From positions 4,713 to 68,712 of the forward strand of contig CAINGB010000025.1 of assembly GCA_903848275.1 (NCBI GenBank): a stretch of DNA of 64,000 nucleotides. The letters run 5' to 3'. Shown here piece after piece: positions 34,996-63,239 of the stretch. Every line of letters begins with the position of its first letter. The stretch's first letter is position 1. Under the pieces are notes generated by a model, which saw only the letters and a list, made by a program, of their open reading frames with translations, did no database searches and was not told the origin of the DNA. Source of the stretch: Candidatus Uhrbacteria bacterium (GTDB taxonomy: Bacteria > Patescibacteriota > Patescibacteriia > UBA9934). The position numbers and the translations under genes were made by a program.

Positions 34996-35042
34996 CTGTG
35001 GATAAGTGCTGTATACGTTGAGCGTATACGCTCAACGTATAC
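34996..35042. repeat. Perfect DnaA box (TTATCCACA, minus orientation) followed by a 32-nt perfect palindrome (gtatacgttgagcgtatacgctcaacgtatac) in the scpA promoter region
   Basis: + strand tctgtggataagtgct | gtatacgttgagcgtatacgctcaacgtatac. The palindrome is self-complementary over all 32 nt and contains 3 GTATAC. Confidence 0.7.
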
Positions 35043-35043
35043 A

Positions 35044-36357
35044 CTACGGTCTTAAGCGTTGAACATCCCGAGGGAAAATCGTCGCCTCCTTAACGTTCGC
35101 GAGGCCCAAGATGTTTTGGGTGAGGCGTTGCAGGCCAATAGCGAAGCCGCCTTCGGGGGGAATACCGAATTTGTGCATGGTCAAGTAGTCCTCAAAATCG
35201 GCCGGGTTCAAGCCTTTCTCCACGATGCGGGCGAGCTGTTCGTCGTAGCGGTTAATGCGCATACCGCCGGAAGTGATTTCACTCCCCCAGCCGATGACGT
35301 CGAAAGTGAGGGTGTTGTTCGGGTCGGTTGGATCCACCTTGGCATAGAACGGGCGTTTGGCTGGCGTCCAGTCAGTGACGAAGACAAAGCCGCAGTTGTG
35401 GTGCTTGGGGGCCCATTCTTTGGAGAGCCACTTTTCGGCCGCTGGTGAGAGGTCTGGCTCCCCTGTTTCGTCGACACCGGCTTCGTCGCGGTAAGCGGCC
35501 AGGGCGTCGGCCAGCTTGATACGAGGGAAACGCTCGCCGAGTGGTGGGAGAACGGTTTCGAGAAGTTTTAATTCGACGGTGCAATCACGCTCGACAGAGG
35601 CAACCATCTGGCGAATGGCGGCTTCTTCGATGTCCATGAGCTCGTCGATGCTATCGATGAAACCAGCTTCAAACTCGAGTTGGTTGAACTCGGTCAAGTG
35701 ACGTGAGGTAGCGAATTTTTCGGCGCGGAAGGAGTAGCTCAAACCGTAAACGCCTTCGTAGACGCCCATGGTGATTTGCTTGTAGAGCTGGGCGGACTGG
35801 GTGAGCGTGGCTTCGCGGCCGTAATAGTCGACCTTGAAGAATTCGGCGCCACCTTCACTAGCGGCACCAGCCAGCACGGGGAAGAAAATTTCGGTGTAGC
35901 CCTGAGCTTCCATGAAAGCGCGGTAACCGTGAACCAAAGCGGCCTGCACACGGAAGATGGCGCGCTGCTTAGGGTGACGGAGAGTGACCACGCGGTTGTC
36001 GAGGAGGGTGTCCAAGTTGACGTCGAGCACAGGCTTGCCGATTTCGACTGGCACGACGTCGACAACTGGTGAGAGAATTTCCAAAGTCTCAACTTGCATT
36101 TCGACTTCTTTAATCAACGGATCCTTCGACTTCTTTTCCACGATGAGGCCGGTGACGGCTACGACGGTTTCCACCTGGAGGCCGTGGAGTTGGGTAAGTT
36201 GCTCGGCGTTAAGGACGGTTTGCGCGAGGCCGGAACGGTCGCGGATGATGGCGAAGCCGAACTTGCTCATGTCGCGGAGGGTGTTGAGCCAGCCTTTGAT
36301 GGTGACGACTTCACCTAGATGGCTTGGGAGATCCTTTACTAGAGTTCTGGTATTCAT
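35044..36357 (-). CDS. aspS: Aspartate--tRNA ligase, archaeal/eukaryal type (possibly non-discriminating)
   Basis: Motif 2 FRAEKFATSRHLTEF. Motif 3 GGFAIGLQRL. SGGMRINRYD is AspRS-like. Start taken at MNTRTLVKDL. Confidence 0.75.
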   Translation of the reverse strand: MNTRTLVKDLPSHLGEVVTIKGWLNTLRDMSKFGFAIIRDRSGLAQTVLNAEQLTQLHGLQVETVVAVTGLIVEKKSKDPLIKEVEMQVETLEILSPVVDVVPVEIGKPVLDVNLDTLLDNRVVTLRHPKQRAIFRVQAALVHGYRAFMEAQGYTEIFFPVLAGAASEGGAEFFKVDYYGREATLTQSAQLYKQITMGVYEGVYGLSYSFRAEKFATSRHLTEFNQLEFEAGFIDSIDELMDIEEAAIRQMVASVERDCTVELKLLETVLPPLGERFPRIKLADALAAYRDEAGVDETGEPDLSPAAEKWLSKEWAPKHHNCGFVFVTDWTPAKRPFYAKVDPTDPNNTLTFDVIGWGSEITSGGMRINRYDEQLARIVEKGLNPADFEDYLTMHKFGIPPEGGFAIGLQRLTQNILGLANVKEATIFPRDVQRLRP

Positions 36358-36383
36358 AGGTCGTATTGGTCCAATAGGACCTA

Positions 36384-37688
36384 TTAAGGAGTTGAGCGAT
36401 TTAGCATGCGGGGGAAGGCGATGGTTTCGCGGATGTGGTGGTTGCCGGTGATCCAACGGACGGTGCGCTCGAGACCGATGCCGAAGCCGCTGTGCTGTAC
36501 GGCGCCGTACTTGCGGGTGTTCAAGTACCAGTCATATTCGGCCAAGGGGTAGCCACGATCCACAATTTCCTTTTTGAGCGCGTCGTAGCTTTCTTCACGC
36601 TGACTACCGCCGATAATTTCGCGGCCTTCTTCTGGCGCGATGAGGTCCGCATTCCTGGCGCGGAGGACGCCAGCTTCATCGACGTAACGCTTCATGTAGA
36701 AGGCTTTGACAGCGGCTGGATAATCCTCGATGAAAATTGGCAGTTGATATTTGTTACCGAGGTAGATTTCTTCCTCCGTGCCCATGTCGTCCAAGGGATC
36801 CACGTCGGCGATGCCGTCGGCGATCAAGATGGCTTTGGCTTCCGCGTGCTTGAGGTGGACGAATGGTTCGTCGACTAGTTTTTGTAAGAGCGTGGTGTCG
36901 CGCTCGAGGATTTTGAGCTCGGGGGCGCAGAATTTGAGGACGTCGCCGACGATGCGCTTGACCATCCGTTCCTGCACAGCCATGTTGTCCACTTGGTCGT
37001 GGAAGGCCATTTCCGCGTCCATCATCCAGAGTTCCGAGAGGTGGTGGCGCGTCTTGCTCTTTTCCGCGCGGAAGACGGGGCCGAAGTCGTAAACTTTGCC
37101 GAAGCTCATGATGCCCGCTTCGCTGTAAAGCTGGCCCGATTGCGAGAGATACATGGGATTGCCGTAGTAGTCGACGCTGAAGAGCTGGGTGGTGTCTTCG
37201 CAGCTAGTTGGCTGCAAGATTGGGGTGTCAAAGCGGATGAAACCGGCTTCGTGGAAGAATTGCTCGATGCTGAAGAAGACTTGGTCGCGAATGCGGAGTG
37301 TGGCCCAGGGCGTGGCGCTGCGGAGGTACAAGTCGCGGTTGTCGAAGAGGAAGTCCGGGCCGTGTTCTTTGTTGGCGATTGGGTAATCTTCTGGAGCGAG
37401 CGCGATGATGGCGAAGGCGGTGCCTTGGATTTCGAAGCCGCTTGGCGCACGAGGCTCAGCTTTAACAAGACCGGTGACGGTGACGGAAGACTCGAGGGTC
37501 AGCGACTTGAGGGCGTCCCATTGCTCGGCTGGCAAATCCCCCGCCGAGTAGACGACTTGGACACGGCCGCTGCCGTCGCGGAATTGGAGGAAGAAGATTT
37601 TGCCGCTGCTCCTGAAGTTGTAGGCCCAGCCTTGAAGAGTAATGGTTTCACCGACGAGGGTTGAGAGTTGGGAGATTGAGGGAGTCAT
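36384..37688 (-). CDS. asnS: Asparagine--tRNA ligase
   Basis: FRAEKSKTRHHLSEL, GGSQREE, DWYLNTRKYGAVQHSGFGIGLER (AsnRS-type motif 3). Start taken at MTPSISQLS. Confidence 0.75.
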   Translation of the reverse strand: MTPSISQLSTLVGETITLQGWAYNFRSSGKIFFLQFRDGSGRVQVVYSAGDLPAEQWDALKSLTLESSVTVTGLVKAEPRAPSGFEIQGTAFAIIALAPEDYPIANKEHGPDFLFDNRDLYLRSATPWATLRIRDQVFFSIEQFFHEAGFIRFDTPILQPTSCEDTTQLFSVDYYGNPMYLSQSGQLYSEAGIMSFGKVYDFGPVFRAEKSKTRHHLSELWMMDAEMAFHDQVDNMAVQERMVKRIVGDVLKFCAPELKILERDTTLLQKLVDEPFVHLKHAEAKAILIADGIADVDPLDDMGTEEEIYLGNKYQLPIFIEDYPAAVKAFYMKRYVDEAGVLRARNADLIAPEEGREIIGGSQREESYDALKKEIVDRGYPLAEYDWYLNTRKYGAVQHSGFGIGLERTVRWITGNHHIRETIAFPRMLNRSTP

Positions 37689-37706
37689 ATAGAGATATTG
37701 TTTTGA

Positions 37707-37847
37707 GTTGGTCACGTTTTGTGACCAACTGGCTACCTGGGGACAATCTGTCCCCAGGTAGCCATCGTAAGAATAGTTTTTTTCGTTCTCAAGTGGTGAC
37801 AACCTGTCACCACTTGACCTCAGTCTGTCACAGTTTGTGACAGACTG
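37707..37847. repeat. Four tandem perfect hairpins between the T-box terminator and the asnS start codon. Stems are 9-13 bp, all built around GTCAC/GTGAC or TGTCCCC cores.
   Basis: + strand: gttggtcac gtttt gtgaccaac. ggctacctggggaca atc tgtccccaggtagcc. caagtggtgaca acc tgtcaccacttg. cagtctgtcaca gtt tgtgacagactg. Confidence 0.7.
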
Positions 37848-37995
37848 AAAAATAAAATTCACCCGTACAGAACGACGAGTTAGGCTCATCATTTTGTAAG
37901 GGCGAATCTTCATTAGATCGCGGTGCCACCTCACTTTAGGCTTTTAAGCAATTGTGCGCGCTGGTCGTTAAGCAGCGGGAGGATTGTCAGGCCTG
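37847..37995 (-). promoter_or_regulatory. Candidate T-box riboswitch leader of asnS. It has a promoter (TTGCCA-17-TATAGT), a short specifier hairpin with AAC (Asn) in its loop, a T-box sequence GGUGGCACCGCG that forms a canonical antiterminator (A1 6 bp, 7-nt bulge UGGCACC, A2 6 bp), and an overlapping 13-bp terminator plus U-tract.
   Basis: Minus strand reads cgcug CUUAACGAC cagcg ... aaGUGAGG UGGCACC GCGAUC uaaugaa GAUUCGC CCUUAC a ... terminator attcgcccttaca...tgtacgggtgaat tttattttt. UGGC is complementary to GCCA (G73 discriminator of tRNA-Asn). Confidence 0.55.
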
Positions 37996-38115
37996 GTAAG
38001 ACTATAGCTGAACGGGGATTTGGTGGCAAGCCTCTAGAATAGAAGAACGACACCGGGGGCATGCCGTTCCCCTGGGGGTCGGGCACCTCACGGTGTCGTT
38101 AAAGTAGAGTTGCAA

Positions 38116-38403
38116 TTAGGCGGGCCTGGTACGCCACTCTCCATCGAGGAAAAAGACGGCACGATGCACGAGCCAACCATCCGAGCGACGGAACACCGAG
38201 CCGAAGATGTGCTCATCAATCTTCCATTCCTCGGGGAAATCCTGAGTCGCCAGACGGTGATCCAAGACGTGTGAGGGACAGAGCCAACTGGGGGTTTGGA
38301 TATCAACCAGGCCGCGGGGGAGGTGTTTGGGCTGGTCGGCCTCGTTGTAGGTGCAACCAGCGGGGATGATGGGGATGCCGGAACAATCGACCATTTGAGG
38401 CAT
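38116..38403 (-). CDS. Hypothetical 95-aa Cys-containing protein with its own consensus promoter and SD
   Basis: Promoter TTGACA-17-TATACT at 38441-38469 (minus). GGAG 7 nt upstream of the ATG. No recognisable family. Confidence 0.5.
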   Translation of the reverse strand: MPQMVDCSGIPIIPAGCTYNEADQPKHLPRGLVDIQTPSWLCPSHVLDHRLATQDFPEEWKIDEHIFGSVFRRSDGWLVHRAVFFLDGEWRTRPA

Positions 38404-38440
38404 TGGGAAACTCCAGGTTGGTGATAAGTTGACCTAAATT

Positions 38441-38469
38441 AGTATAGCAAAAAAATGGCCTTTTGTCAA
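38441..38469 (-). promoter_or_regulatory. Consensus sigma70 promoter (TTGACA-17-TATACT) for the 95-aa ORF
   Basis: Minus strand cttgaca aaaggccatttttttgc tatact. Confidence 0.6.
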
Positions 38470-38506
38470 GCCATGGTGTCAATTATTTGGCTAAAATTGG
38501 CTTAGT

Positions 38507-39295
38507 TTATGGGGTTGATGTGAGGGGTAAAATGCCGGTCCAGAAGGGTTGCGTGGGGTGGCCGGGGACGTGGTAAAGGACGGTGTCGTGGACGCAAGCG
38601 GCCAGAGAGGCGACGTCGGCGCCTTTGAGAGGATAGCGGAAAAGGCCGTCGTAGGAGCTGTCGCGAGCGAGGCGGAGGAGTTGGACGACTTCCTGGCGAA
38701 GGGGCGTGGCCAGGAACCATTCGCCGGGGTTTTTGGCAATGCAGTTGGAGCAAACCAGTCCCCCACGGCCGCCATGCCAGCGGAAAGATAGTGGCACGAT
38801 CTCACCCTCGCAACCAACGCAATGGTCGAGCGCGACGTTGTAGCCGAGTTGGCGCATCAAACGTAAGAGAAAGCCGCTCAGCAAAAAAGTGCTGCGGGTG
38901 GGGTGCAGCGTCTGCTGAGCTTCGAGAAAATGGAGCCAAGTGGTTAGCTCGCCGTAGAGTACGGCGTCCTCTTGCTCTTCGTGAATGATTTTGTCGAGGA
39001 GGCCGAGGGAGGTGAGGGCGAGGAGGCGATGGTCGATGGATTCAGCGATGTTTTTGAAGGCGTGTTTACGTTCGACGCCGATGACGGTGACGGAATGCGC
39101 GCCGCGGATAATTTCGAGGTCGAGAATGGCGCAGGGCCCAAGATGTGGAGAGAGTTTGGCGAGAGGTTTAGCGGCGCCACGACCGAAGAACTCGAGCTTG
39201 CCGTGGCCGGGCGTCAACGCTGAATAACGGCGATCGGCTTCGCGCCAAGGAGAAACTGATAATATTATCGCTTCAGTTTTTATACTCGCCCACAT
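38507..39295 (-). CDS. recO: DNA repair protein RecO
   Basis: OB-fold N-domain plus CxxC...CxxC zinc finger (LDHCVGCEGEI...LVCSNCIAK). Confidence 0.85.
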   Translation of the reverse strand: MWASIKTEAIILSVSPWREADRRYSALTPGHGKLEFFGRGAAKPLAKLSPHLGPCAILDLEIIRGAHSVTVIGVERKHAFKNIAESIDHRLLALTSLGLLDKIIHEEQEDAVLYGELTTWLHFLEAQQTLHPTRSTFLLSGFLLRLMRQLGYNVALDHCVGCEGEIVPLSFRWHGGRGGLVCSNCIAKNPGEWFLATPLRQEVVQLLRLARDSSYDGLFRYPLKGADVASLAACVHDTVLYHVPGHPTQPFWTGILPLTSTP

Positions 39296-39305
39296 ACAAC
39301 GAAAA

Positions 39306-39707
39306 CTAAGCGAGGCGGCGGAGGTCGTCGAGATGGGCTTGAAGAACGAGTTGCGCGGCGATGGCGTCTTCCTGGGCTTTGACGCCGAATTCCTGTTGCA
39401 TGCGGCGAGCTTCCGAAGATGAGAATTTTTCGTCCGCTGTGATAATGGGGAGAGGTGTCGACGAAGCTAAAAGATCGATAAACTTTTTAGTGAGATCGAC
39501 CTGAGTCGAGGAATGCTCGGGATTGCTTTGATAAGGCACGCCGACTACGAGAGCGTCGATGCTTTCGGCCTTGGCGAGCTTGAGAATGACGGGAATAGCG
39601 GCATCGCCACCGACGATGACTTCTAGGGGAAACGCCAAGCCGGAGCTGTCGTCGCCGATAGCTAAGCCGATTTTTTTGAGGCCGAAGTCGATGCCGAGGA
39701 AGCGCAC
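39306..39707 (-). CDS. ruvX: YqgF/RuvX-like putative Holliday junction resolvase / pre-16S nuclease (GTG start assumed)
   Basis: VRFLGIDFGLKKIGLAIGDD...IDALVVGVPY RNase H-like fold signature. The longer tracked ORF overlaps the upstream gene. Confidence 0.65.
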   Translation of the reverse strand: MRFLGIDFGLKKIGLAIGDDSSGLAFPLEVIVGGDAAIPVILKLAKAESIDALVVGVPYQSNPEHSSTQVDLTKKFIDLLASSTPLPIITADEKFSSSEARRMQQEFGVKAQEDAIAAQLVLQAHLDDLRRLA

Positions 39708-39708
39708 A

Positions 39709-40155
39709 TTATTTGACGTCAGACTGGAAGTCAACGCGGAGAACTTGACCGTCCACACTGACTGGAAGGTCGTCGGTAACGCTGAAGACCTGGTCGCCGT
39801 TGTCGACATGGAGGAGCGCAATGTAATCCTTGCTCGGGTCGAGCGGGGTGGTTAAGCGAACGCCAGTACCCTCATGCAAACCGTGATCCAAGAAGCCGGA
39901 GGTAGCAATAATTGGACCAGGAGCCTTGCCGATAGCCTCGTGAATAGTAATGAAACCGTCCTTAACCAGGTTGACAGTAAACATTTGCATATTGGCCCAG
40001 CTGGCACCCGGGGTGATGGCGAGGGTGGAGCCTGGAACGTCGACCGGTACATAATCTGGCTTGGCTGGCGGTGCAGCAAAGAAGAGAACGCCGAGGCCGG
40101 TGATGGCGGCGAGAATGACGACGAGGACGACGATGTCAGTTTTTTTGAAGATCAT
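39709..40155 (-). CDS. Membrane-anchored hypothetical protein (148 aa)
   Basis: N-terminal TM helix, then a soluble domain. No recognisable family. Confidence 0.5.
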   Translation of the reverse strand: MIFKKTDIVVLVVILAAITGLGVLFFAAPPAKPDYVPVDVPGSTLAITPGASWANMQMFTVNLVKDGFITIHEAIGKAPGPIIATSGFLDHGLHEGTGVRLTTPLDPSKDYIALLHVDNGDQVFSVTDDLPVSVDGQVLRVDFQSDVK

Positions 40156-40349
40156 ATTTTGGTTAATTGAAGATCCATGAAGGAGGTGTCGGAGGCGTCT
40201 ATACTCTCATAATCGACGAAAAAGTCGAGGCTACCGACGCGCACTTCGTAGCCGCCGTCGTAATGGTTGGGGGTGATGTAAACAGTCTCTCCGCTAACTT
40301 TAGCGACGTGCTGGCGGATGAAGGCTTCGTCGGAGGTTTGATCGCGCAT
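40152..40349 (-). CDS. Small hypothetical protein (65 aa). 4-nt overlap with the downstream gene. TTATCCCCAC motif lies 42 nt upstream.
   Basis: ATGA overlap with the 39709..40155 gene, so translational coupling is plausible. Confidence 0.35.
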   Translation of the reverse strand: MRDQTSDEAFIRQHVAKVSGETVYITPNHYDGGYEVRVGSLDFFVDYESIDASDTSFMDLQLTKI

Positions 40350-40391
40350 ACGAGAGTTAGTGTACCTGAACGGTGACTTGGAACAAGGAGG

Positions 40392-40445
40392 GTGGGGATA
40401 AGTGGTCTACATTCAATGTATACATTGAATGTAGACCACTTATCC
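40392..40445. repeat. 50-nt perfect palindrome (25-bp arms, centre GTATAC) flanked by TTATCC(CC)AC DnaA-box-like motifs. Its right arm overlaps the stop codon of the ABC permease gene.
   Basis: ggataagtggtctacattcaatgta|tacattgaatgtagaccacttatcc. The left end reads gtggggataag (reverse complement cTTATCCCCAC). The right end reads cTTATCCACgg. Confidence 0.8.
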
Positions 40446-41276
40446 ACGGAGGCCGATGAAGTTACCGCTTTCGTAGCGGCGGACGGAGCCGTAGAAGGCG
40501 GCGATGCTGATGAGGAGCCAGAGGAGAGCGATGAGCCAGACGAGGCCGAGGGTGAGCCAGCTGTGGCCCATGACGGCTTCCACGGGGAGACCACCGACGG
40601 TGAGGGACGGAATGAGAACGACGAAGATGAAACGGGCGACTTTTGGAAATAAGGCGGAGGGATACATGGTTGGGTTCATGAAAACCTTAAAGACGGCCAT
40701 GACAGTGTGATTGGAATCGGGAAGATAAAAGGCGGCGGTACCGGCGACCACGCTGACGCTCAAAAAGATCAACATGGTGGCTGGCAACATGGCGGCGAAC
40801 CAAACGAGCGAGAGAGCTGAGCCGGTTATGACAGCATAAGCAATAATCAAAATCACGCCGAGTAAAGCGTCGCCCAAACCAGCGAGGTCGAAGCGACTGG
40901 TCATGGTGCGCACATAAAGATTGCGGGGCGAGAGTAGAAAGCCATCGAATGTTCCCTGCTCGACATAACGCGGTAACCACAAACTGCCACCAGCAAAGCC
41001 GAACGTGAAGCCGTAACACATGAGGTTCATGCCGAGCAGCGCAAAAATTTGAGTGCCGCTCCAGCCGTTGACGCTGCCCATGACCTGGAAGAATAAGATC
41101 CACAAGGCTAAGAAGGCGCAGTCGTTAATCATCATGCCGACGATCTGCAACATGAAAGCAGTACGGAATTCCATGGCGGCACGAAAATTAGTCAGCCAAA
41201 TAATCCGAGCGACCGTGAACTCGGCGATGAGGCCAGAAACGAATGATCGTTTATTTTTAATGCGCTTAGCCCCCAT
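40440..41276 (-). CDS. ABC-2 type transporter permease (second permease of a three-gene system)
   Basis: Polytopic membrane protein with a 6-TM ABC-2 profile. Confidence 0.7.
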   Translation of the reverse strand: MGAKRIKNKRSFVSGLIAEFTVARIIWLTNFRAAMEFRTAFMLQIVGMMINDCAFLALWILFFQVMGSVNGWSGTQIFALLGMNLMCYGFTFGFAGGSLWLPRYVEQGTFDGFLLSPRNLYVRTMTSRFDLAGLGDALLGVILIIAYAVITGSALSLVWFAAMLPATMLIFLSVSVVAGTAAFYLPDSNHTVMAVFKVFMNPTMYPSALFPKVARFIFVVLIPSLTVGGLPVEAVMGHSWLTLGLVWLIALLWLLISIAAFYGSVRRYESGNFIGLRG

Positions 41277-42081
41277 AAATTGATAAGATCTTTTTGGCGC
41301 GACGCCAGCTAAAGGTGGCGAACGATAACATTACGATGCACCAGATTAGTTGAGACAATAACAGCGTCGGAAATTCTGCCGCGAAGTCGCCTGTAAAAGC
41401 TCGAGCAAAAGAAATCATGGCGCCCATAGGCAGCCAAGTCGCCAAGATCTTCAACCAACTTGGGAAAAAGACAACGGGCACGATGGAGCCACCAAGAATC
41501 ATGACGCTTTTGTCGAAAATCCACATGACTGGCTCGGGGTCGTCCAACCAAAATGAAGTTATGCCAATGCAAGCAAAGGAGAACATGGAGAGCAGAAAAC
41601 CGAAGAAGCCGAGGCTTAAGAACTCGACCAGCCAGATTAACGAGAAGTCGACTGGAGGCGCGCCGGCCATGAGGAATAAGATTATAAATGAGATAGTGAG
41701 AGTTGAGATGCAGACCCAGGTTTGACGACCTAGGCGCTTGCAAACCGTGAGAATGATGTAGTCAACAGGCTTGTTTAAGATGCCTTCGACACTGCCGCCT
41801 TTGACGTCAAAAGCAATGTCGCGATAAATGTTACGAACACCGGTTGACCAATAAACGGTGTACATGCCGATGGACCAGAGGGACATGGCTAAGGTGACGC
41901 CCTGAATGGAAGAGCGGGCAGCGAAAGCGAAATGGTAAACAGAAAAGAGCGTCACGAGTGTGACGCTAATAGCACAGCAGTTAGAAAAAATTGTCGCGTA
42001 GTTACTAGAACTATCGCGCGCGGAGATGCGAGCGGCGACCCAGTATTTACGGAGGGACAAATAGCTACTTTTTAGCCCCAT
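41266..42081 (-). CDS. ABC-2 type transporter permease (first permease)
   Basis: Polytopic membrane protein that overlaps both neighbours. Confidence 0.7.
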   Translation of the reverse strand: MGLKSSYLSLRKYWVAARISARDSSSNYATIFSNCCAISVTLVTLFSVYHFAFAARSSIQGVTLAMSLWSIGMYTVYWSTGVRNIYRDIAFDVKGGSVEGILNKPVDYIILTVCKRLGRQTWVCISTLTISFIILFLMAGAPPVDFSLIWLVEFLSLGFFGFLLSMFSFACIGITSFWLDDPEPVMWIFDKSVMILGGSIVPVVFFPSWLKILATWLPMGAMISFARAFTGDFAAEFPTLLLSQLIWCIVMLSFATFSWRRAKKILSIYGG

Positions 42082-42889
42082 AAATATCTTGAATGATTTC
42101 TTCGAGCGATGGTTCGACGGCGACCATTTTCACGGGGCGGTGAGCGAAGTAGTCGTGCTTGAGGGCGTCGGTAGATTCGTCGACCACAATGCGGCCGTGG
42201 TTGACGACCATGGTGCGAGTGCAGAGTGCTTCGATGTCGCCGACGTCGTGACTGGTGAGAAAGAGAGTGACGCCTTCTTCGCGATTGATGCGACCCAAGA
42301 CTTCGCGGAGGGATTTTTTGGCGACGATGTCGAGGCCGATGGTGGGTTCGTCGAGGAAGATGATTTCTGGTTTGTGAATGAGGGCGACGGCGATTTCGGC
42401 CCGCATGCGTTGACCGAGCGAGAGCTTGCGGACGGGACGGTCGACGAATTCAGCGAGATCGAAGAGGCCGATGAGTTCTTTTTGACGACGACGGACGGTG
42501 GCTGGGGAGAGTTCGTAAATGGCGCCGAAGAGTTCGAAGGAGTCGCGGACCGGAAGATTCGGCACGAGTTGGGAGCGTTGGCCGAAGAGGGTGCCAATGC
42601 GGAAGGCCAGCTCGCGGCGGTTTTTGTAAGGGTGGAGGCCGGCCACGGTCATGTTGCCAGACGTGGGGTAAAGAATGCCGGTGAGCATCTTAATCGTCGT
42701 CGACTTCCCTGCCCCGTTCGGGCCAATAAAAGCGACAGCCTCCCCTTCCGGCACCGTAAAGCTGATGTCGTCGACGGCGGTGACAATCTCTTTCTCTGGC
42801 TTAAAAAAGTTGCGCAGGCGGCCTTGTTCTGGTTGACGCACGGCCAGACTAAAGCTTTTGACGAGATGGCTGACGGTGATGGCGGGCAT
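42065..42889 (-). CDS. ABC transporter ATP-binding protein
   Basis: Walker A GPNGAGKSTT, signature LSLGQRMR, Walker B IIFLDEPTIGLD. TGcTATAAT extended -10 immediately upstream. Confidence 0.85.
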   Translation of the reverse strand: MPAITVSHLVKSFSLAVRQPEQGRLRNFFKPEKEIVTAVDDISFTVPEGEAVAFIGPNGAGKSTTIKMLTGILYPTSGNMTVAGLHPYKNRRELAFRIGTLFGQRSQLVPNLPVRDSFELFGAIYELSPATVRRRQKELIGLFDLAEFVDRPVRKLSLGQRMRAEIAVALIHKPEIIFLDEPTIGLDIVAKKSLREVLGRINREEGVTLFLTSHDVGDIEALCTRTMVVNHGRIVVDESTDALKHDYFAHRPVKMVAVEPSLEEIIQDIYGAKK

Positions 42890-43009
42890 AATGAGGTGAT
42901 TATAGCACAATGGGAGGTGCTAGGTGCTACCCAGTACCTAGGGTGAGTTCAAACCCCAATGCACCACCCTGTAAACATTGAGGTTTGAACTCACCGGGGG
43001 ATAATTAGC

Positions 43010-43296
43010 TAGACAAAAGTGCGTTTTTGTGATACTATGCACAGTTACACAGAAACAATAAAAACCTCATGCCTTGTCCACTAGGGGTGGACGCCATTGG
43101 CAGTGAATATAGCAAACAGTTATCGCTGGCCAAGTCTGTCATGGACTTGGACAATGGCGAGTAAAACTCGTCGTAGTCCGGATTCTCACCGTGAGATGAA
43201 GTAGGAAGCGAAAGTAATCGCGTGAGCGGTGAATGCCTTAACCCTTGCTGTGTAAGCCTGCATCAAAGAACAAGCTGAACCCTGTGCCAACAGGGT
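43010..43296 (+). promoter_or_regulatory. Promoter (TAGACA-17-TACTAT) plus a ~250-nt structured 5' leader upstream of the RNHCP gene. The terminal hairpin accctgt gcca acagggt abuts the ATG. Possible riboswitch or cis-regulatory RNA of unknown class.
   Basis: Long untranslated region with multiple predicted helices and no ORF of 60 aa or more. The start codon sits immediately 3' of a 7-bp hairpin with no SD. Confidence 0.35.
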
Positions 43297-43623: not shown

Positions 43624-43689
43624 AGAAAACCACCCATGATTGGGTGGTTTTTCGTGTTTCAAAATGAGAGATGGAAATAGGAAAATATT

Positions 43690-53346: not shown

Positions 53347-53349
53347 AGA

Positions 53350-54195: not shown

Positions 54196-54204
54196 ACAAG
54201 GGGG

Positions 54205-55875: not shown

Positions 55876-56152
55876 AAAGTGAGTCAACCGTTGGAGCACA
55901 GAGGCCTGATAACGAAAAAGCGTGAAGTTGCATTAAAATGCAGCTTCCGCCTTCAGCAGTTACCCTTCCTAAAATTGCTGTCGGTCTTTGATTAATCTGA
56001 GTTGTAAAACTTCTAGAACACTCTCGCGAAGCTGCGGTAAGGTTTTCTCACGGTGAGATCTTTCTTTCCGGTTCACTATTGAGTGGGATGTCCGAGTCTC
56101 CGTGCTATGCTCGATTGATCGAGGATATGACGGAGACTCGGACGGGGTAAAA
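55876..56152 (-). promoter_or_regulatory. Unusually long (277 nt) structured spacer between rpsJ and rplC. It has a 14-bp hairpin (gtccgagtctccgt...acggagactcggac) and a second hairpin. Possible attenuator or autoregulatory RNA, or a missed small ORF.
   Basis: S10 and L3 are adjacent in most bacteria. Here there is a 277-nt gap with long perfect stems and no ORF of 60 aa or more. Confidence 0.35.
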
Positions 56153-56497
56153 TTACATTTTGATTTCGATGTCGACGCCGGCTGGCAAGTTGAGTGACAT
56201 GAGGGCGTCGATGGTGCGCTCTGTTGGACCGACGATGTCGATGATGCGCTTGTGGATGCGCATTTCGTACTGGTCGCGTGAAGTCTTGTCGATGAAGGTT
56301 GAGCGGTTCACCGTGTAGCGACGTCGTTCCGTCGGCAATGGTACTGGACCAATGACCGTGGCACCAGAACGGATGGCCGTTTTGATGATGGTGTCCGTGG
56401 CGGTGTCGATGATCTTGTGATCATAGGCCTTGATACGGATACGGATGCGCTGCTTAGGAGCTTCAGCTTCAGTAGTTGTTTTTTTGGTGTCAGTCAT
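56153..56497 (-). CDS. rpsJ: 30S ribosomal protein S10
   Basis: [16 protein letters not shown]... Confidence 0.9.
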
Positions 56498-56525
56498 AGG
56501 AGCAAAGAAAGAACAAGGTAACTAA

Positions 56526-57716
56526 TTACTCAATGATTTTGACAACCACACCAGCGCCGACGGTACGGCCACCTTCGCGGATAGCGAAGCGCATCTTGTC
56601 TTCCAAGGCAACTGGGTTGATGAGAGTTACGGTACAAGTGACGGTGTCACCTGGCATAACCATTTCGGTACCTTCTGGGAGGGTGATTTCACCAGTTACG
56701 TCCGTAGTACGGATGTAGAACTGTGGCTTGTAGCCCTTGAAGAATGGCTTGTGACGACCACCTTCTTCCTTGGTCAAAGCGATGATTTCAGCTTCGAACT
56801 TGGTGTGTGGCTTGACCGAACCTGGTTTGGCCAAAACCTGACCACGCTGCACGTCCTCCTTCTTAATACCACGGATCAAGATACCAGCATTGTCGCCAGC
56901 CATACCGGAGTCCAAGGACTTGTTAAACATTTCGATACCAGTAACGGTGGTCTTGGCGGTGTCGGTGATACCAACGATTTCTACTTCGTCACCAACCTTG
57001 ATCTGACCGCGCTCGATACGACCGGTAACAACCGTACCACGACCTTCGATAGAGAAGACGTCTTCGATTGGCATCAAGAAAGTCTTGTCGAGGTCACGAA
57101 CTGGTTCCGGAACGTAGGCATCCAAGGCATCCAAAAGGTCGCGGATTGGCTTGCTGGCAACTTCGTCAGAAGGAGCGGCCAAGGCCTTAGAGGAAGAACC
57201 GCGGATAACTGGGACGGTGTCGCCTGGGAAATCGTACTTCTTCAAAAGGTCGCGAACTTCCTGCTCGACCAAATCAATAAGTTCTGGGTCGTCAACCATG
57301 TCAACCTTGTTCAAGTAGACAACGATAGTTGGCACACCAACCTGCTTGGCCAAAAGAATGTGCTCGCGGGTCTGTGGCATTGGACCGTCAGCAGCAGAAA
57401 CAACGAGAATAGCGGCGTCCATCTGGGCAGCACCGGTGATCATGTTCTTCACATAGTCAGCGTGGCCTGGACAGTCGACGTGAGCGTAGTGACGCTTGGC
57501 AGTCTCGTATTCACAGTGGGCGGTAGAAATAGTGATACCGCGGGCCTTGGATTCAGGAGACTTGTCCAAACCATCCATGCCCTTAGTGGAGGCAGAGTTA
57601 CCCATGGCAGCTGCCACCGCAAGGATGGCCGCCGTGGTGGTGGTCTTTCCGTGGTCGACGTGACCAATGGTACCAACGTTAACGTGCGGTTTGGCTCGGG
57701 AGAACTGTTCTGCCAT
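56526..57716 (-). CDS. tuf: Elongation factor Tu
   Basis: [22 protein letters not shown]-motifs. Confidence 0.95.
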
Positions 57717-57785
57717 AAAAGGATGGGCGGTCGAGAGACCTTAAATGTGAGGGATTAAAGGATTTCTTGTAAAGTGCGTGGCAGG

Positions 57786-57814
57786 AGTATAGCAAAAGTC
57801 CTTTATTTGTGCAA
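57786..57814 (-). promoter_or_regulatory. Sigma70-like promoter for tuf (TTGCAC-17-TATACT)
   Basis: Minus strand cttgcac aaataaaggacttttgc tatact, about 75 nt upstream of the ATG. Confidence 0.55.
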
Positions 57815-57840
57815 GGGCTTAGCTGTGTTCAGACTGACCC

Positions 57841-58383
57841 CTAAAGTGGTTCGAGGTAGAACTGCTCTTCCCCGCCGTTATTTTTTGCTTGGGAAAGCGG
57901 TTGACGGGGTGTTTCGGGCGGTCGTGGTGAGGCCGGAACTGGGGTATTTACAGACTGGCGTGGCTCGGTTCGAGGCTCAGCCTGAGGAATGGGACGGGGC
58001 TCGAGGCGTGGTTCGGGCTCGTAACGAGGGCTCGGGGCGGGTTCGATGATTTCGAGGACGGGTTCGGTAGGTGCGGCCAGAAAGACTGGGTCGATCTCGA
58101 TTTCCCCTATCTCCTCCTCCCCTTCCGCCTCAAACTCGGGCTCGACCCGCTCGGCTGTCTCGGCCTGGTGGCCGTGTGGGTGGCTATGTCCGGCGTGGTC
58201 GTGCTCAGCCTCCAGCTGTTCTATCTCCTCGTCGTCCGGCCCTAGGAAGCCATTGACCAAGGCCTCGTACTGCTCAAACGGCAGAATAACCAGTGGTTCC
58301 CCACCGTGCTCGTTGGTCACAATCAGTCTGTCCCCTGTCCGCCTAGCAAACCGCAAGAGCTTCTGGAATTGATCATTAGCCAT
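57841..58383 (-). CDS. Phd/YefM-like antitoxin-domain protein fused to a long acidic Pro/Glu-rich tail with a His-rich patch. It is an orphan, with no adjacent toxin.
   Basis: N-terminus RLIVTNEHGGEPLVILPFEQYEAL resembles the YefM/Phd core. The tail is EPEPRLEPRPIPQAEPRTEPR..., with HDHAGHSHPHGH. Confidence 0.45.
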   Translation of the reverse strand: MANDQFQKLLRFARRTGDRLIVTNEHGGEPLVILPFEQYEALVNGFLGPDDEEIEQLEAEHDHAGHSHPHGHQAETAERVEPEFEAEGEEEIGEIEIDPVFLAAPTEPVLEIIEPAPSPRYEPEPRLEPRPIPQAEPRTEPRQSVNTPVPASPRPPETPRQPLSQAKNNGGEEQFYLEPL

Positions 58384-58453
58384 ATAGGGCCATCTTAGTA
58401 CTTGGGCCCGGAATGTCAAAACCGAGGCACTGAGCCCCGGTTCGGATGTTGAC

Positions 58454-59263
58454 CTAGCCTCTTGTTTCATTTGCTTTTTCTGCTGCGACTTTCTTTTCAG
58501 CTTCTTCTTGGAGCCACTCAGTTATTTGTTCTATCTCTCTTAAAGCGTTTAGTGCTTCTTCGATTTGCTCATTAAGGAAATCCCTTTCGCGTTTCAGTGC
58601 TCCCAGCCTCTTCTCAGAGGTAGATACGGTATCGGCGACTTGAGCCTTAAATGAATTAGGATCGGTATTTTCCAGCCAAAATTTATGCACAGCAGCTAGA
58701 TTTTTTTCTGCATCTATTATTTTATTGCCTATTTCTTTTGTTAAGAAAGTCGCATTCGTTTGCAAATCCTCCCAATACTTTTGCTTGTTTGCCATTTCTT
58801 TTAATGTAAGGGTGCTGTTTATTTTTTCAATCTCACCATGCATGTCGCGGTAAAAGTCATTAGGGTTGTCATGATACACATCCCTCTCTCCAGCTTTTTC
58901 TCGTTTTTCCGCTTCTTCCCTGCGTCCCTCAATGTAGGCAGCGGTCTCTATAGCATTCGTCATTTGATCTCGTAAACCCGACATTATTGGCCCATCAATA
59001 TTGCGCATGCCTTCGAGCGCTGTAACAGCTCTTTCTACTGCTTCAATTTGCCCGAGAGCACCCTTAAAACCCTCAATTGCTTTCTTTCCTTTTAATGAAT
59101 CAATAACGTTCTCGAGTTTTTTGTAATTGTCGCTTGTACTATACCTATCATGAGGCAATGTTTTAGCGAAGCGCTCGGCTGGGGAAGAAACCTTATCCGC
59201 CTCTTTGGGGACATTAATAAACTCCTTCAATCCGTCCGGTCGCGTTCTTTCTTCAACACCCAT
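58454..59263 (-). CDS. Hypothetical coiled-coil protein (269 aa), low GC. TTATCCCCAC motif lies ~65 nt upstream.
   Basis: AT-rich, charged and helical. No family recognised. Confidence 0.45.
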   Translation of the reverse strand: MGVEERTRPDGLKEFINVPKEADKVSSPAERFAKTLPHDRYSTSDNYKKLENVIDSLKGKKAIEGFKGALGQIEAVERAVTALEGMRNIDGPIMSGLRDQMTNAIETAAYIEGRREEAEKREKAGERDVYHDNPNDFYRDMHGEIEKINSTLTLKEMANKQKYWEDLQTNATFLTKEIGNKIIDAEKNLAAVHKFWLENTDPNSFKAQVADTVSTSEKRLGALKRERDFLNEQIEEALNALREIEQITEWLQEEAEKKVAAEKANETRG

Positions 59264-59344
59264 AAAATAACAAAAATAATCTTACCTGGCGTAATTTTCC
59301 CATAGAGTGCCTCCCACCTGCAAATGAGTGTGGGGATAACACGA

Positions 59345-59821
59345 TTATGTAGAGGTAGTCCTAACCCCCTCGGCGATGTGGAGAATGTGGGATTTGGGGA
59401 CGAGATAAGTTGGGTAATGCTGGCCGTCGACGAGGGCGACTTTTTGTTTGGCGAGGTGTTCTGTTTCGGCGTCGACGAGGAATTTAAGGCCGAAGAGGTT
59501 GATGCTGGCTTTGACTTGGACGTTGTGCGACCAAGAACCGATGAACTCCCAGTTATGAATAGCGCAGCGTTGAGCGTTGGTTAAAAGCCATAGAGTGCCG
59601 GTGACTTGGCTAGCTGGTTGTTTGACAATGCCATAGGAGACAAAGCTGTCGCCCCAAGCGCGACGGAGGGGACGTTGGGCTTTTTTGGGAATATCGTTCA
59701 GCTGTTGCACGCATAAGTGCCAGCCGTCGAGAGAAGCTGGTAGGTGTAGAGCGGAACGACCAGTAATAGCCTTGATCATAGCCGCGTCGCGATTGGCGCC
59801 AAAGCCGAAGTAAAGTTTCAT
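59345..59821 (-). CDS. Gamma-glutamyl cyclotransferase (AIG2/GGCT)-like protein. TTATCCCCAC motif lies ~36 nt upstream.
   Basis: N-terminus MKLYFGFGANRD resembles the YGSN motif of AIG2-like proteins. Moderate. Confidence 0.4.
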   Translation of the reverse strand: MKLYFGFGANRDAAMIKAITGRSALHLPASLDGWHLCVQQLNDIPKKAQRPLRRAWGDSFVSYGIVKQPASQVTGTLWLLTNAQRCAIHNWEFIGSWSHNVQVKASINLFGLKFLVDAETEHLAKQKVALVDGQHYPTYLVPKSHILHIAEGVRTTST

Positions 59822-59930
59822 ACAGAAGTATTGTCCCCTGCCAGAAAAAGTAAAGCAACTGGCCGTGGGGATAAAATCGAATCTGTGCTAGACTGAAAGT
59901 AGCAGTAATTCATTATTAATTAACAGCCCT

Positions 59931-60704
59931 ATGGAAAAGCGCAATAATTGGGCAGTAGTTGGAGGAGTTGTGGTAATAGCAGCGGTGATTGTCGCGATCG
60001 TGCTATTGACGAGAACACCATTAGAACCAGATGGCAAAGGTGACCAGCCGACGAACGTGGTTGACGACACTACAACTGGCGGAGTTGTGAAGGATGATCA
60101 GAAGCCCGTGGTTACAGGAACGGTCTACGAAAACTCGAAGTTCAGTATTGCTATACCAAAAGGTTGGACGGCTAGTGAGGCGATAATCAATATCGACAGT
60201 AAATCAGACGGTGCGACCACGGAATTGAACCCAGCGGCGGTAAATATTACCAATGGCAAATGGATTCTCTACGTCAACGTCGACGCCAACCAGGCTAGCG
60301 GTGTGCCCGGTGGACGATTCGCGGAAATTGGCATGGGTGCGCCGAGTGTGGATGCTGTAGTATTAGTCGAACCAGGCGAATGCGGACGCTCGACTGGCCC
60401 TGAAGGCACGCCAGCGTTTGCGAATTATAGCCGGATTGATGATTTCATTTCAGTAGCTGATGCCACGACTGGCTGTGCCACGCCAACTGACGGGCAGGAT
60501 CACTGGTTCTTCTCGTATTTGACGAGTCCGGGTAATGGCTTCTTTAACGACTACGTACTCGGACAAAACCCAGGCTTAGTGGTAACGATGGCTTATAACG
60601 AAAAGGTGGTGAATAAACTCCCAATTTGGAACAGCGACTCGCTAACTAAAGCACTGAATGACATGACGAGTATCGCGAGTACGTTGAAGATTAAGAATCG
60701 CTAG
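59931..60704 (+). CDS. Hypothetical membrane-anchored exported protein (257 aa)
   Basis: N-terminal TM/signal anchor AVVGGVVVIAAVIVAIVLL, then a Gly/Thr-rich domain. Confidence 0.5.
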   Translation: MEKRNNWAVVGGVVVIAAVIVAIVLLTRTPLEPDGKGDQPTNVVDDTTTGGVVKDDQKPVVTGTVYENSKFSIAIPKGWTASEAIINIDSKSDGATTELNPAAVNITNGKWILYVNVDANQASGVPGGRFAEIGMGAPSVDAVVLVEPGECGRSTGPEGTPAFANYSRIDDFISVADATTGCATPTDGQDHWFFSYLTSPGNGFFNDYVLGQNPGLVVTMAYNEKVVNKLPIWNSDSLTKALNDMTSIASTLKIKNR

Positions 60705-60715
60705 GAGCTTTCGTA

Positions 60716-60800
60716 AAAAATAACTCCCGGAGGGCTTGCCACGTCAGTCGCGACTGACGTGGCTTGCACGCCTCCGGGAGATGTTTTTTTATTTAAGCGG
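60716..60800. terminator. Bidirectional intrinsic terminator: nested perfect palindrome (gccacgtcagtcg|cgactgacgtggc inside ctcccggagg/cctccgggag), flanked by A6 and T7
   Basis: aaaaaataactcccggagggcttgccacgtcagtcgcgactgacgtggcttgcacgcctccgggagatgtttttttattt, between convergent genes. Confidence 0.7.
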
Positions 60801-61239
60801 CGATGGATCGTTCGGCGGCGGCGAGGGCTTTAGCCTGTTGGTCTGGTGTGCGGTGTTGGGCAGCGAAGGTGTCGGAAGCAATGACGTCTGAGGCGGCGTC
60901 GTTCTGCTTGCTGGCCATGCGGATAGCCGAGAGGATGAGGTCGAGTTCTGGGAGTTGGAGTTGATTGGCGAACTTTTTAACGCGGGCGATGGCTTGCGAC
61001 ATGTCGTGCAGTGAAGAGCTGTCCAAGTGTCGGCCGTCGGCAAAGGCGGCGAAGATTGGTTGTAAACTCTGAAGCTCGGCGCTGGCTGACTCGTTGGTGG
61101 TTTGTTCGATGATATTAGGAATGATGTTGGTGGCAATATTGCTGGCGTGTTCGGCGATGGTGCGCAAACGTTCGTGACGGGCAGGGTCGGGCTGTTCTGG
61201 CTGTTCGGATGAATGCATCATATGGATAGAGTTTAGCAC
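60793..61239 (-). CDS. Hypothetical protein (148 aa)
   Basis: ORF only. Last gene of a four-gene minus-strand cluster. Confidence 0.4.
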   Translation of the reverse strand: MLNSIHMMHSSEQPEQPDPARHERLRTIAEHASNIATNIIPNIIEQTTNESASAELQSLQPIFAAFADGRHLDSSSLHDMSQAIARVKKFANQLQLPELDLILSAIRMASKQNDAASDVIASDTFAAQHRTPDQQAKALAAAERSIAA

Positions 61240-61562
61240 TAAACTACGATGTCGTTAATTGCTTCGAGTCGACGAGGATAACTGGCCGAAGGAGAGGCAT
61301 CGACAAGACTTAACGAAAATATATCTACGTCTTGGCCACCCTCGGTAAGTGTGGCGACTGTATTTGTAATAGTGAGGCTGGTGTGAGCCAGGTCATCACA
61401 TGTCCAATGGATACAGTTTTTGTTGGCGTCGACGTCTTCTTCCACAACTGTTTGCCGCAGGACCTTGTTCAAGCCGTTAATTTTAATAATGCAGCCGGCG
61501 CGAAGTGAACGAAATTTCTCCCAATCGGCGGCAGTAATGGGTAGGATAGAAATAGTAGACAT
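61239..61562 (-). CDS. Hypothetical protein (107 aa)
   Basis: ORF only. Stop/start junction with the downstream gene. Confidence 0.4.
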   Translation of the reverse strand: MSTISILPITAADWEKFRSLRAGCIIKINGLNKVLRQTVVEEDVDANKNCIHWTCDDLAHTSLTITNTVATLTEGGQDVDIFSLSLVDASPSASYPRRLEAINDIVV

Positions 61563-61564
61563 AC

Positions 61565-61855
61565 CTATTTAGTAAAGGCGAACGAAGTGATATCGGCAAA
61601 TTTACCACTGCCTTGGCGTGAGCTATCACTGAACTCTTTTTTCTTCAGCTCTCCGTTACGGAGAAGTAAAAGGTAATTTCTATACCCTACGTCCATGTAG
61701 CGATATGGAAGTAGAAAATTCTCGGCTGGTTCGTCGACGATCAGTAGGCTGGTAATAATTTCTGGTGCGCTATCAACCAAAATTATGTCGCCAATGCGGA
61801 GGTTGAAGAATTTGATTTGTGAGAGTTCGCTTAAGGGGAAAGGTTTACTAATCAT
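61565..61855 (-). CDS. Hypothetical protein (96 aa)
   Basis: ORF only. Confidence 0.4.
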   Translation of the reverse strand: MISKPFPLSELSQIKFFNLRIGDIILVDSAPEIITSLLIVDEPAENFLLPYRYMDVGYRNYLLLLRNGELKKKEFSDSSRQGSGKFADITSFAFTK

Positions 61856-61952
61856 AAAAAAATTACTATTAATACCATGCTATCACGTCGGTGCAAACGA
61901 AAACACCACCCACGACGTGCGAGCGGTGTTGTTCTGTTAGCTGACCAATCAA

Positions 61953-63149
61953 TTAAGATGCGTACTCTTTGATACCTGGCTTTCCCGCCAGCTCATCAAG
62001 CGCGTACCCCATTTCGCAGGCAACGCTCCCCCAGTCTGCTAGTTGCTTGAATTCGATATTTGGGAATAGTTCATGCACCATCGTTTCGAATTTTTCACTA
62101 GCGCCACCGGATGTTGAGGTATGATCTTTCAACCATTGTTCAACCAACTCTTTATTGTGCTGCATGCCAATCGATAGTTCAAGAGCCTCGGTATCATAAT
62201 CTTTAGAGTCAGTTTCTTCTCGATCATAAGGGCTCCTTACCATTCTCTTTAATCTCTCTGCATGCCGTACTGCTCTCGGTTCAACCCATGCTCGCCATTC
62301 CGTTACACCTTGCCAAAATTGAGTAAGCGTTTGCTCATTGTCTTCTAATAATTTCGCGATTTCAGGAAAATCTTTAGCGGTGAGCTCCATAACTTTCATG
62401 AACGGTTGCAGTATTCGCCAGGCGCGTCGGATAAAATCTTTTCTTGGCGAGCCCGATTGTTGCCACTCCTCAAAAATGTTGCTCACGAAGTCCGAAGCCA
62501 TTTTTTCGACTTCTTCATTAGTGAGAATGCCTCGTTCTACAAAAAGACTTTGGACATCTTTAACCCTGGTTGCATCGACAAAACCTAGACTCATCTTGAA
62601 AGAATCGAGCATGGATCTCTCGGCAATATGTTTCAGTTCAGGATGTTGTGACAAAACCTCGATCATGAACGGACTGGTGGGGCTAAGACCCGAAAATGCT
62701 AATTCCCTTGCATTAGAAGTATTTTTTTCTATCCAGCTAGATACGAAGCCGCCTGCCTCTTCAGCAAGTTCAACAGCAAGAATAGTACTAACATTCGTCG
62801 CGTCCAATAACGAATTGATAACTTTATCTCCGGATTGTAAAGCTTTAATTATTCGGGTTTTTACCGCCTCATAAACTTCTGGATCATTTTTCATGAGTCT
62901 GTCGATCATGATGCAATAAATGTACGGCATTTCAGAAGCCTGGTTGACGGCCTGAAGGACAACTCTTTTAGCTGCCGCAAAAACTTCTGGATCCTGCAGA
63001 ACTCCGAGACTGCCGTCGGCTGCAGGCCACATGTCTCTCGAAATAGTCTCATTATCCTCCGAGGATATAGCAGCAATGAGTCTTTGTCGCTTTTGCTCGG
63101 GATTTTGTTCGAGCTTGAATCCTGGCTCACCTTTAGAAATTTCAGCCAT
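61953..63149 (-). CDS. Hypothetical alpha-helical protein (398 aa), low GC. First gene of the cluster. TTATCCCCAC motif and a C10 tract lie upstream.
   Basis: AT-rich ORF. TATAAT at about -20. Motif at 63215-63224. C10 homopolymer at 63196-63205. Confidence 0.45.
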   Translation of the reverse strand: MAEISKGEPGFKLEQNPEQKRQRLIAAISSEDNETISRDMWPAADGSLGVLQDPEVFAAAKRVVLQAVNQASEMPYIYCIMIDRLMKNDPEVYEAVKTRIIKALQSGDKVINSLLDATNVSTILAVELAEEAGGFVSSWIEKNTSNARELAFSGLSPTSPFMIEVLSQHPELKHIAERSMLDSFKMSLGFVDATRVKDVQSLFVERGILTNEEVEKMASDFVSNIFEEWQQSGSPRKDFIRRAWRILQPFMKVMELTAKDFPEIAKLLEDNEQTLTQFWQGVTEWRAWVEPRAVRHAERLKRMVRSPYDREETDSKDYDTEALELSIGMQHNKELVEQWLKDHTSTSGGASEKFETMVHELFPNIEFKQLADWGSVACEMGYALDELAGKPGIKEYAS

Positions 63150-63239
63150 ACTAATTAAAATAATTATAACTCACACAAGTTTCTCATAAAGTCACCCCCC
63201 CCCCGCAAATGAACGTGGGGATAAGATTATCTGCAAAAA

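Follow-up and report, generated by a model that had tools for sequence, protein, structure and literature searches.

Genomic context of the motif

A 64,000-nt stretch of the genome of a Candidatus Uhrbacteria bacterium, a member of the Candidate Phyla Radiation (CPR), was analyzed and is referred to here as the window. Its gene map was built from open reading frame (ORF) length and Pfam matches, and 4760 nt (7.4%) of it are intergenic. The subject of the analysis is a 10-nt motif, TTATCCCCAC (GTGGGGATAA on the plus strand), that recurs in front of minus-strand genes at four sites named a to d (Table 1). Sites b, c and d lie in a variable island between tuf and fusA, and site a follows an ABC-2 permease gene. 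The window has promoters of the sigma-70 type (TTGACA-N17-tgcTATACT), and many of its genes appear to be leaderless.

The relatives used for comparison were L001–L004, L005 (the sister species), L008, L009 and L120–L125, of which L005, L008 and L009 were fetched via EF-Tu. The assignment to Candidatus Uhrbacteria was made through relatives found with RecO, whose genes in common with the window are ~78–90% identical to it at the DNA level. The assembly GCA_964355955.1 (CAYHFQ01; L001, L006) encodes RecO and EF-Tu proteins that are each 99% identical to those of the window, and both its gene content and its sequence similarity are Uhrbacteria-like.

Table 1. Positions of the motif copies and of the features associated with them (window coordinates)
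Feature	Position	Strand	Description
Perfect 9-mer TTATCCACA	34997..35005	-	In the spacer of the scpA promoter TATACA-18-TATACT; ATG 7 nt past the -10
Palindromic element at scpA, GTATAC-N7-GTATAC-N7'-GTATAC	35011..35042	.	Just past the stop of the upstream aminoacyl-tRNA synthetase gene; fold z = -5.1
Motif copy a (TTATCCCCAC)	40392..40401	-	42 nt upstream of the 65-aa ORF start (40349)
Palindromic element at a, GTGGATAAG-GTCTAC-N7-GTATAC-N7'-GTAGAC-CACTTATCCCCAC	40392..40449	.	Left end overlaps the ABC-2 permease stop codon
Partial copy TTATCCCCCG (8/10)	42997..43006	-	Between an ABC ATPase gene (minus) and an RNHCP-domain gene (plus); synteny breakpoint relative to L002
Variable island without Pfam families, holding b, c and d	57841..63266	.	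Between tuf and fusA, 5.4 kb
Promoter/leader module b	59264..59348	-	ATAATC, motif, TTTGC, CTATGGGAAAATTA, TAAGAT, ATG; homologous to d and to L005 8184-8263
Motif copy b	59330..59339	-	66 nt upstream of the 269-aa ORF start (59263)
Motif copy c	59865..59874	-	In a 109-nt divergent region between a 158-aa ORF (minus) and a 257-aa ORF (plus)
Promoter/leader module d	63150..63230	-	Paralogue of module b by identity and shuffle test
Motif copy d	63215..63224	-	65 nt upstream of the 398-aa ORF start (63149), directly past the fusA terminator

Enrichment and placement of the 10-mer

An initial annotation of the window had reported four plus-strand sites for GTGGGGATAA; all four were borne out, and the window holds no further copy. 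The expected number is 0.10, and four copies were reached in none of 100 dinucleotide shuffles of the window. When one mismatch was permitted, only two extra matches appeared, both in coding regions. The exact copies are all intergenic and lie upstream of minus-strand start codons, as had been claimed, although the measured gaps run from 42 to 66 nt (43 nt at site c; for the others see Table 1) rather than from 36 to 65 nt. The 8-mer core TTATCCCC follows the same pattern: five of its six copies fall within the intergenic fraction, all five on the minus strand and facing a downstream minus-strand gene (binomial P ~1e-5 for the intergenic share, by our own arithmetic). The most frequent intergenic 8-mer in the window is GGGGATAA, level with the extended -10 element TGCTATAC. 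A sixth, degenerate copy of the motif exists as TTATCCCCCG, at the position given in Table 1 rather than near 42987, where it had been placed. The label 'GGCT-like' attached to the ORF downstream of site c found no support in Pfam even at E <= 1.

Beyond the exact 10-mer, the flanks of a, c and b/d show no significant similarity when alignments are compared with shuffles, and site c resembles the other sites only in the 10-mer and in a TTGC six bases downstream. Such sharp edges amid dissimilar flanks argue for constraint on the 10-mer itself. A literature search for the 10-mer returned primer sequences only, and a scan of a viral collection for TTATCCCCAYNNTNNTTTGC gave 110 single matches, approximately the estimated chance number.

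Several known motif classes were considered and rejected. With four copies in 64 kb and none in coding sequence, the motif is too rare for a DNA uptake sequence (DUS) or uptake signal sequence (USS) or for a polar motif such as Chi or the FtsK-orienting polar sequences (KOPS). A Fur-like box can be read at d (GATAATCTTATC), but its half-sites are not in register, and neither a nor c shows the pattern. The plus-strand ORFs that open at the motif (GTG GGG ATA A; ATG in L005) are antisense to conserved genes, range from 8 to 140 codons and have only 'VGI' in common. One of these reading frames, on the plus strand at c (59850–59876), is an 8-codon ORF, (V/M)GIKSNLC*, also found at site c of L005, where the differences (GTG/ATG, AAA/AAG, TGC/TGT) are start-preserving or synonymous; its conservation is probably a coincidence, because the ORF overlaps the divergent promoter.

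Conservation in the sister species and turnover of the fusA-tuf island

The content of the fusA-tuf gap differs in every relative fetched and consists of small orphan genes (L005 6327–9877, L008 7507–9850, L009 7450–9918). The island proteins of the window have no match in Pfam or PHROG, except for a weak Phd/YefM-like stretch in a 209-aa protein, and the 398-aa product has one homologue among 5.8 billion proteins. Relative to L005, the island has undergone both segmental and single-gene changes. The 2.0-kb segment 63266–61241, which comprises the d module and three genes, is absent from L005. At site b, one gene stands in exactly for another: the 269-aa product of the window is replaced in L005 by an unrelated 332-aa product, with homology extending up to the ATG and resuming at the next gene.

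Amid this turnover the motif is retained in the sister species, where the orthologous sites b and c both read TTATCCCCAT, with 9 of 10 bases kept at each. At L005 c, TTTATCCCCA, TTGCTT and GGACAATACT are conserved, the intervening stretches are replaced and all six bases after the motif are changed. Position 10 is T at both L005 sites and C in all four window copies, and this shared C-to-T change hints that the motif may co-vary with a reader. No copy of TTATCCCCAC was found in L001–L004, and no intergenic TTATCCCC in L001–L004, L008, L009 or L120–L125.

An exact 10-mer amid unrelated flanks, its strict orientation, its exclusively intergenic location and its retention in the sister species together point to a sequence-specific DNA-binding factor. 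We therefore tentatively favor, as a plausible but less than probable reading, that TTATCCCCA(C/T) is the asymmetric recognition site of such a protein, probably a transcription regulator restricted to the species pair rather than DnaA. Protein binding to the 10-mer, an effect on transcription and every transcription start position given below are what we infer from the DNA sequence.

Two further roles connected with the island were rejected. The sole candidate for an island-encoded regulator, a weak one, is the 209-aa Phd/YefM-like protein, which also occurs in relatives that lack the motif. A recombination site at the island borders does not fit, as the distance from the motif to the homology break varies.

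A promoter/leader module shared by sites b and d

The initial annotation had described an extended match of 22 nt between b and d. It measures 18 of 20 nt and is merely the start of a homologous module of ~80 nt, at whose 5' edge the motif lies. The two modules are identical at 58 of 80 positions, motif included. With the 10-mer left out, the 65 nt from motif to ATG align with a score of 64, compared with 19.8 ± 6.7 for shuffled sequences, of which none of 2000 reached 64. The orthologous region of L005 aligns to both b (score 81) and d (score 49). The three module copies precede genes for products of 269 aa, 398 aa and, in L005, 332 aa, which are mutually dissimilar (E = 0.3–2). Sites b and d thus form one evolutionary unit, so that the independent exact copies of the motif number three, not four.

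Promoter propagation has been described as the occurrence of a homologous upstream region before non-homologous genes (Matus-Garcia et al. 2012, PMC3488235). The b, d and L005-b modules show this arrangement, with ~80 nt of upstream homology before non-homologous genes both within a genome (b, d) and across species (L005-b), and in this they resemble the putative mobile promoters of that study. They differ from them in that only three module copies are known and no associated mobile element was found; moreover, a and c carry the 10-mer without the module. A scan of metagenome collections for the b/d module gave 0 matches.

The module also contains a purine run resembling a Shine-Dalgarno (SD) sequence, followed by a short upstream ORF (ATGGGAAAATTA... 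or ATGAGAAACTT...; 59264–59320 and 63150–63200 on the minus strand, L005 8205–8263). The short ORF is 16 codons long in b, 7 in d and 5 in L005-b; in b it ends in a stop codon that overlaps the main ORF at its start.

A palindromic element at site a and at scpA

Site a lies in a different kind of repeat. It lies in an arm of a perfect 25+25 palindrome (40396–40445) that is matched by a triple-hexamer pattern and whose RNA fold reaches -38.9 kcal/mol (z = -9.7). A related palindrome stands beside the scpA promoter. The elements take the form GTMKAC-N7-(G/A)TATAC-N7'-GTMKAC, with CTGTGGATAAG at one flank and CTTATCCACAG at the opposite one. Four intact copies were identified, each a 32-nt palindrome (window 35011–35042 and 40405–40436, L003 431–462 and 11878–11909), along with two decayed copies (L002 at scpA, L001 at 3628), so that the family spans four genomes. 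The three GTMKAC hexamers keep a 13-nt phase, and the N7 segments vary between copies yet remain complementary: both partners have changed in 8 of 23 stem pairs, and pairing holds for 86% of cells, compared with 28–41% when the partners are slid. Each element begins where the preceding gene ends, directly past its stop codon or terminator.

All element copies except a carry a perfect TTATCCACAG. In copy a, the island 10-mer stands on one side, in the place that the alignment assigns to TTATCCACAG in the other copies, and GTGGATAA overlaps the permease stop codon on the other side. Site a is not conserved, with unrelated hairpins there in L001 and L003 and none in L002, L004 and L120. The CCTCC at both ends of a was considered as a target-site duplication and is probably none, since its left-hand copy is part of the ancestral coding sequence, with GLRG* as the protein terminus in all relatives.

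The family shares several properties with repetitive extragenic palindromes (REP) and the REPIN elements built from them: its members are imperfect intergenic palindromes just past stop codons, found in several copies, with stems that differ yet are complementary and with conserved flanks. Unlike REP sequences, they comprise three GTMKAC hexamers in 13-nt phase, only four intact copies occur in ~200 kb, and a REP-associated tyrosine transposase (RAYT) was not seen; the window contains no transposase. Scans of metagenome and viral collections for the element gave 0 matches each. On these features and its TTATCCAC-type flanks, the palindrome family may be a REP-like element of Uhrbacteria.

In L003 (~300–400, minus strand) and in L001 (~3500–3600, minus strand), a TTGACA-N17-TGGAAT promoter and an intrinsic terminator enclose a ~100-nt unit that is conserved between these two species. 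The palindromic element and TTATCCACAG precede this unit, which adjoins a tRNA gene in L001 and is a candidate small RNA.

The recurrence of the motif is therefore in part a product of common descent, through the b/d module and the palindromic element, and its copies are not four independent sites. Carried further, this leads to an explanation without any shared reader, in which the sites are relics of two repeats, the portable promoter module at b and d and the REP-like palindrome at a and scpA, and the 10-mer has been kept by recent descent or gene conversion. The ~80-nt homology of b, d and L005-b before three unrelated genes fits this, as does the membership of a and the scpA site in one palindrome family. 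In addition, four of the five intergenic TTATCCCC sites lie at or beside homology breaks with relatives, and the uniform C of the window and uniform T of L005 at position 10 also fit homogenization among repeat copies. However, neutral decay of the flanks, which are dissimilar past the 10-mer at a, c and b/d, should have eroded the 10-mer too, and site c has neither a palindrome nor homology to the module. No transposase lies nearby, and the empty module and element scans give no evidence of mobility beyond these genomes. We consider this explanation unlikely.

Relationship to the DnaA box

The initial annotation had linked the motif to the DnaA box and offered three options: a DnaA-dependent regulon, a lineage-specific variant box, or another factor with the accessory island among its targets. 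The last of these is the one favored here; both DnaA options are weakened by the base spectrum at position 7, by the single boxes, by the restriction to two species and by the varying position of the motif.

The resemblance itself is clear. Like the DnaA box in Escherichia coli and Bacillus subtilis, where DnaA acts as a transcription factor, the motif is asymmetric, lies near promoters in one orientation and matches a 9-mer closely: TTATCCCCA agrees with TTATNCACA at 8 of 9 positions and scores ~10.4 of 14.4 bits on a B. subtilis frequency table (our own arithmetic). B. subtilis DnaA binds single boxes and boxes with <=3 mismatches in vitro (PMC4447404), and an A-to-C change at position 7 was reported to be tolerated in DnaA boxes of Epsilonproteobacteria (PMC5043019). 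Perfect copies, TTATCCACA(G), stand beside promoters at scpA in the window, L002 and L003, and also at L001:3628, L003:420 and L121:2566, with the 8-mer TTATCCAC at L125:796. At site a, moreover, the 10-mer takes the place of the TTATCCACAG seen in other copies of the palindromic element. All of this would be compatible with the motif being a low-affinity or lineage-variant DnaA box read by DnaA as a transcription factor, with the perfect scpA box in the same regulon.

The details fit less well. Sites a to d all carry C at position 7, which is among the most invariant positions of the DnaA box: among 150 boxes bound by B. subtilis DnaA, this position was A in 138 and C in 9. The intergenic spectrum of the window is the reverse of this preference, with four copies of TTATCCCCA, one of TTATCCACA and no other single-mismatch variant, and so the consensus is not the commoner form. 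The only perfect match to TTATNCACA is the one at scpA, and a single copy of TTATCCACA is not above chance (0.41 expected). Each promoter has just one box, its targets would be orphan accessory genes, and the distance from the motif to the likely -10 varies. Position 10, which lies outside the 9-mer, behaves as if constrained. The form with C at position 7 is limited to two sister species, L005 carrying it as TTATCCCCAT, and near relatives have the A form only; its absence from the intergenic DNA of relatives with ~80–85% DNA identity in shared genes is a poor fit to a changed specificity of a conserved initiator.

The scpA box had been described as occupying the same relative position as the other sites. 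A perfect box is indeed present, but it lies 17 nt from the ATG, within the promoter spacer, and is therefore not positionally equivalent to a–d. It is kept in L002 and L003 and missing in L004/L120, L122, L123, L124 and L125, that is, in five of the nine Uhrbacteria lineages compared. In L121, an inverted pair, GTGGATAG-N8-TTATCCACA, encloses a TTGACA hexamer that lies 435 nt upstream of scpA, and in L125 a palindrome is followed by TTATCCAC-C-TTGACA before another gene. Thus TTATCCAC beside promoters recurs across Uhrbacteria, and the CC form is restricted to the species pair. Neither dnaA nor oriC was found in the window, which contains parAB and has a monotonic GC skew, and a search of the literature on DnaA boxes in CPR bacteria found nothing relevant. 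Judged on its sequence, the DnaA label of the motif is unsupported, and DnaA as its reader is improbable.

Promoter context and possible function of the motif

In the reading we favor, a dedicated DNA-binding protein, the motif would lie at the upstream boundary of promoter regions that belong to poorly conserved genes, and the bound factor would aid or hinder RNA polymerase at weak promoters. The site would have spread partly by descent, as the 5' edge of the portable ~80-nt module before three unrelated genes and within an arm of the palindromic hairpin at a. The promoters at a–d have no consensus -35, and a consensus scan downstream of the four sites found no sigma-70-type promoter with >= 9/12 matches, as would fit factor-dependent promoters. 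The motif is followed after 5–6 bp by a TTGnnn hexamer at a and c, with a -10-like hexamer 16–17 bp beyond, which would put the motif centre at ~-46. For b and d, TAAGAT and TATAAT are the best -10 candidates and would put it at ~-62.

Two placements of the motif within known promoter types were tried and rejected. In the first, the -35 element of a sigma-70 promoter, the TTGC-type hexamers after the motif lack a well-spaced -10 at b and d and have one at a and c alone. A sigma-54 promoter has the form TGGCAC-N5-TTGC, with GG and GC doublets exactly 10 bp apart. The two-block layout CCCCAC-N6-TTGC at b, c and d resembles it superficially; however, the invariant GG is absent and the spacing is one base longer, and site a reads CCCCAC-N5-TTGT, without the TTGC.

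Several observations weigh against a dedicated regulator. No transcription factor gene was found in the window or the island. The distance from the motif to the candidate -10 is inconstant (~-46, ~-62, or within the spacer at scpA), and the three independent exact copies come from ~85 kb examined in total of the species pair. The island is ~76% identical between the two species anyway, so that conservation of the motif alone is weak evidence. Finally, b, d and L005-b have a -10-like (C/G)ATAAT immediately before the motif, which means that the motif could be transcribed instead of lying upstream of the promoter.

If transcribed, the motif might act in the 5' leader, either as a non-template-strand signal to an elongation factor (similar to ops/RfaH) or as an RNA element with downstream G-runs as pairing partners and a short upstream ORF under its control. 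The upstream hexamers lie 1–4 nt from the motif, and the SD-like run with its short ORF follows downstream in the same three modules. For b, c and d, the minimum-energy fold joins the CCCC of the motif to a GGGG further downstream; the motif's strict orientation and distance of 42–66 nt to the start codon would also fit a leader signal. These folds, however, are no better than those of shuffled sequences (z = -0.6 to -1.9 for the regions of b, c and d), and L005 has not kept the pairing partner. The upstream hexamers have neither a -35 nor a TG motif, a and c have better promoter candidates past the motif, and no NusG paralogue was seen in the window. Rfam searches of the window and L001–L004 identified tRNAs only. 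A role in the leader therefore seems very unlikely.

A broader scenario can also be drawn, in which the fusA-tuf gap is a cassette-like hypervariable site where unrelated genes arrive behind a portable module bearing TTATCCCCA(C/T) as operator. A lineage-specific factor or a DnaA of relaxed specificity would then co-switch the accessory set together with a few backbone genes tagged in hairpin elements. We regard this as distinctly unlikely in this combined form.

Other features of the window

Near the partial motif copy, an inverted repeat ACAAAA-N6-TTTTGT adjoins the synteny breakpoint upstream of an ABC transporter operon. It is present in four species (window ~43015–43035, L001 ~6230, L002 ~2725, L003 ~3650) and may be an operator.

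A gene-free region of 531 nt (26206–26736) contains two promoter-plus-terminator-like units that share GTTCGGC...AGCCGAAGACA and have no Rfam match; they could be small RNA genes. A 57-nt direct repeat (20354–20410 and 22210–22266; 86% identical) is located in two separate intergenic regions, upstream of the pth gene and of a Mur ligase gene, likewise with no match in Rfam. At the start of the window, an ORF of 3135 aa (120–9527, minus strand) contains internal repeats of ~129 nt (families D1–D6) and is followed by a 625-aa protein with Big_5 and type IV secretion system (T4SS)-pilin-like domains. The GC skew is positive on the plus strand across positions 1–64000, yet the minus strand carries most of the genes, among them the ribosomal protein operon.

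Biological significance

Members of the CPR/Patescibacteria have very few regulators and cannot be cultivated alone, and to our knowledge almost nothing is known about the control of their transcription. The motif described here is a real signal of a regulatory type; as a candidate regulator site with some repeat-derived copies, it is an ordinary kind of feature in an unusual and poorly known lineage. It is short and strand-fixed and tags the promoters of rapidly exchanged orphan genes, on a module that is reused before unrelated genes. Were DnaA its reader, replication status would be linked to the expression of accessory genes. More generally, the motif would give a concrete handle on how newly acquired genes are expressed in CPR bacteria.

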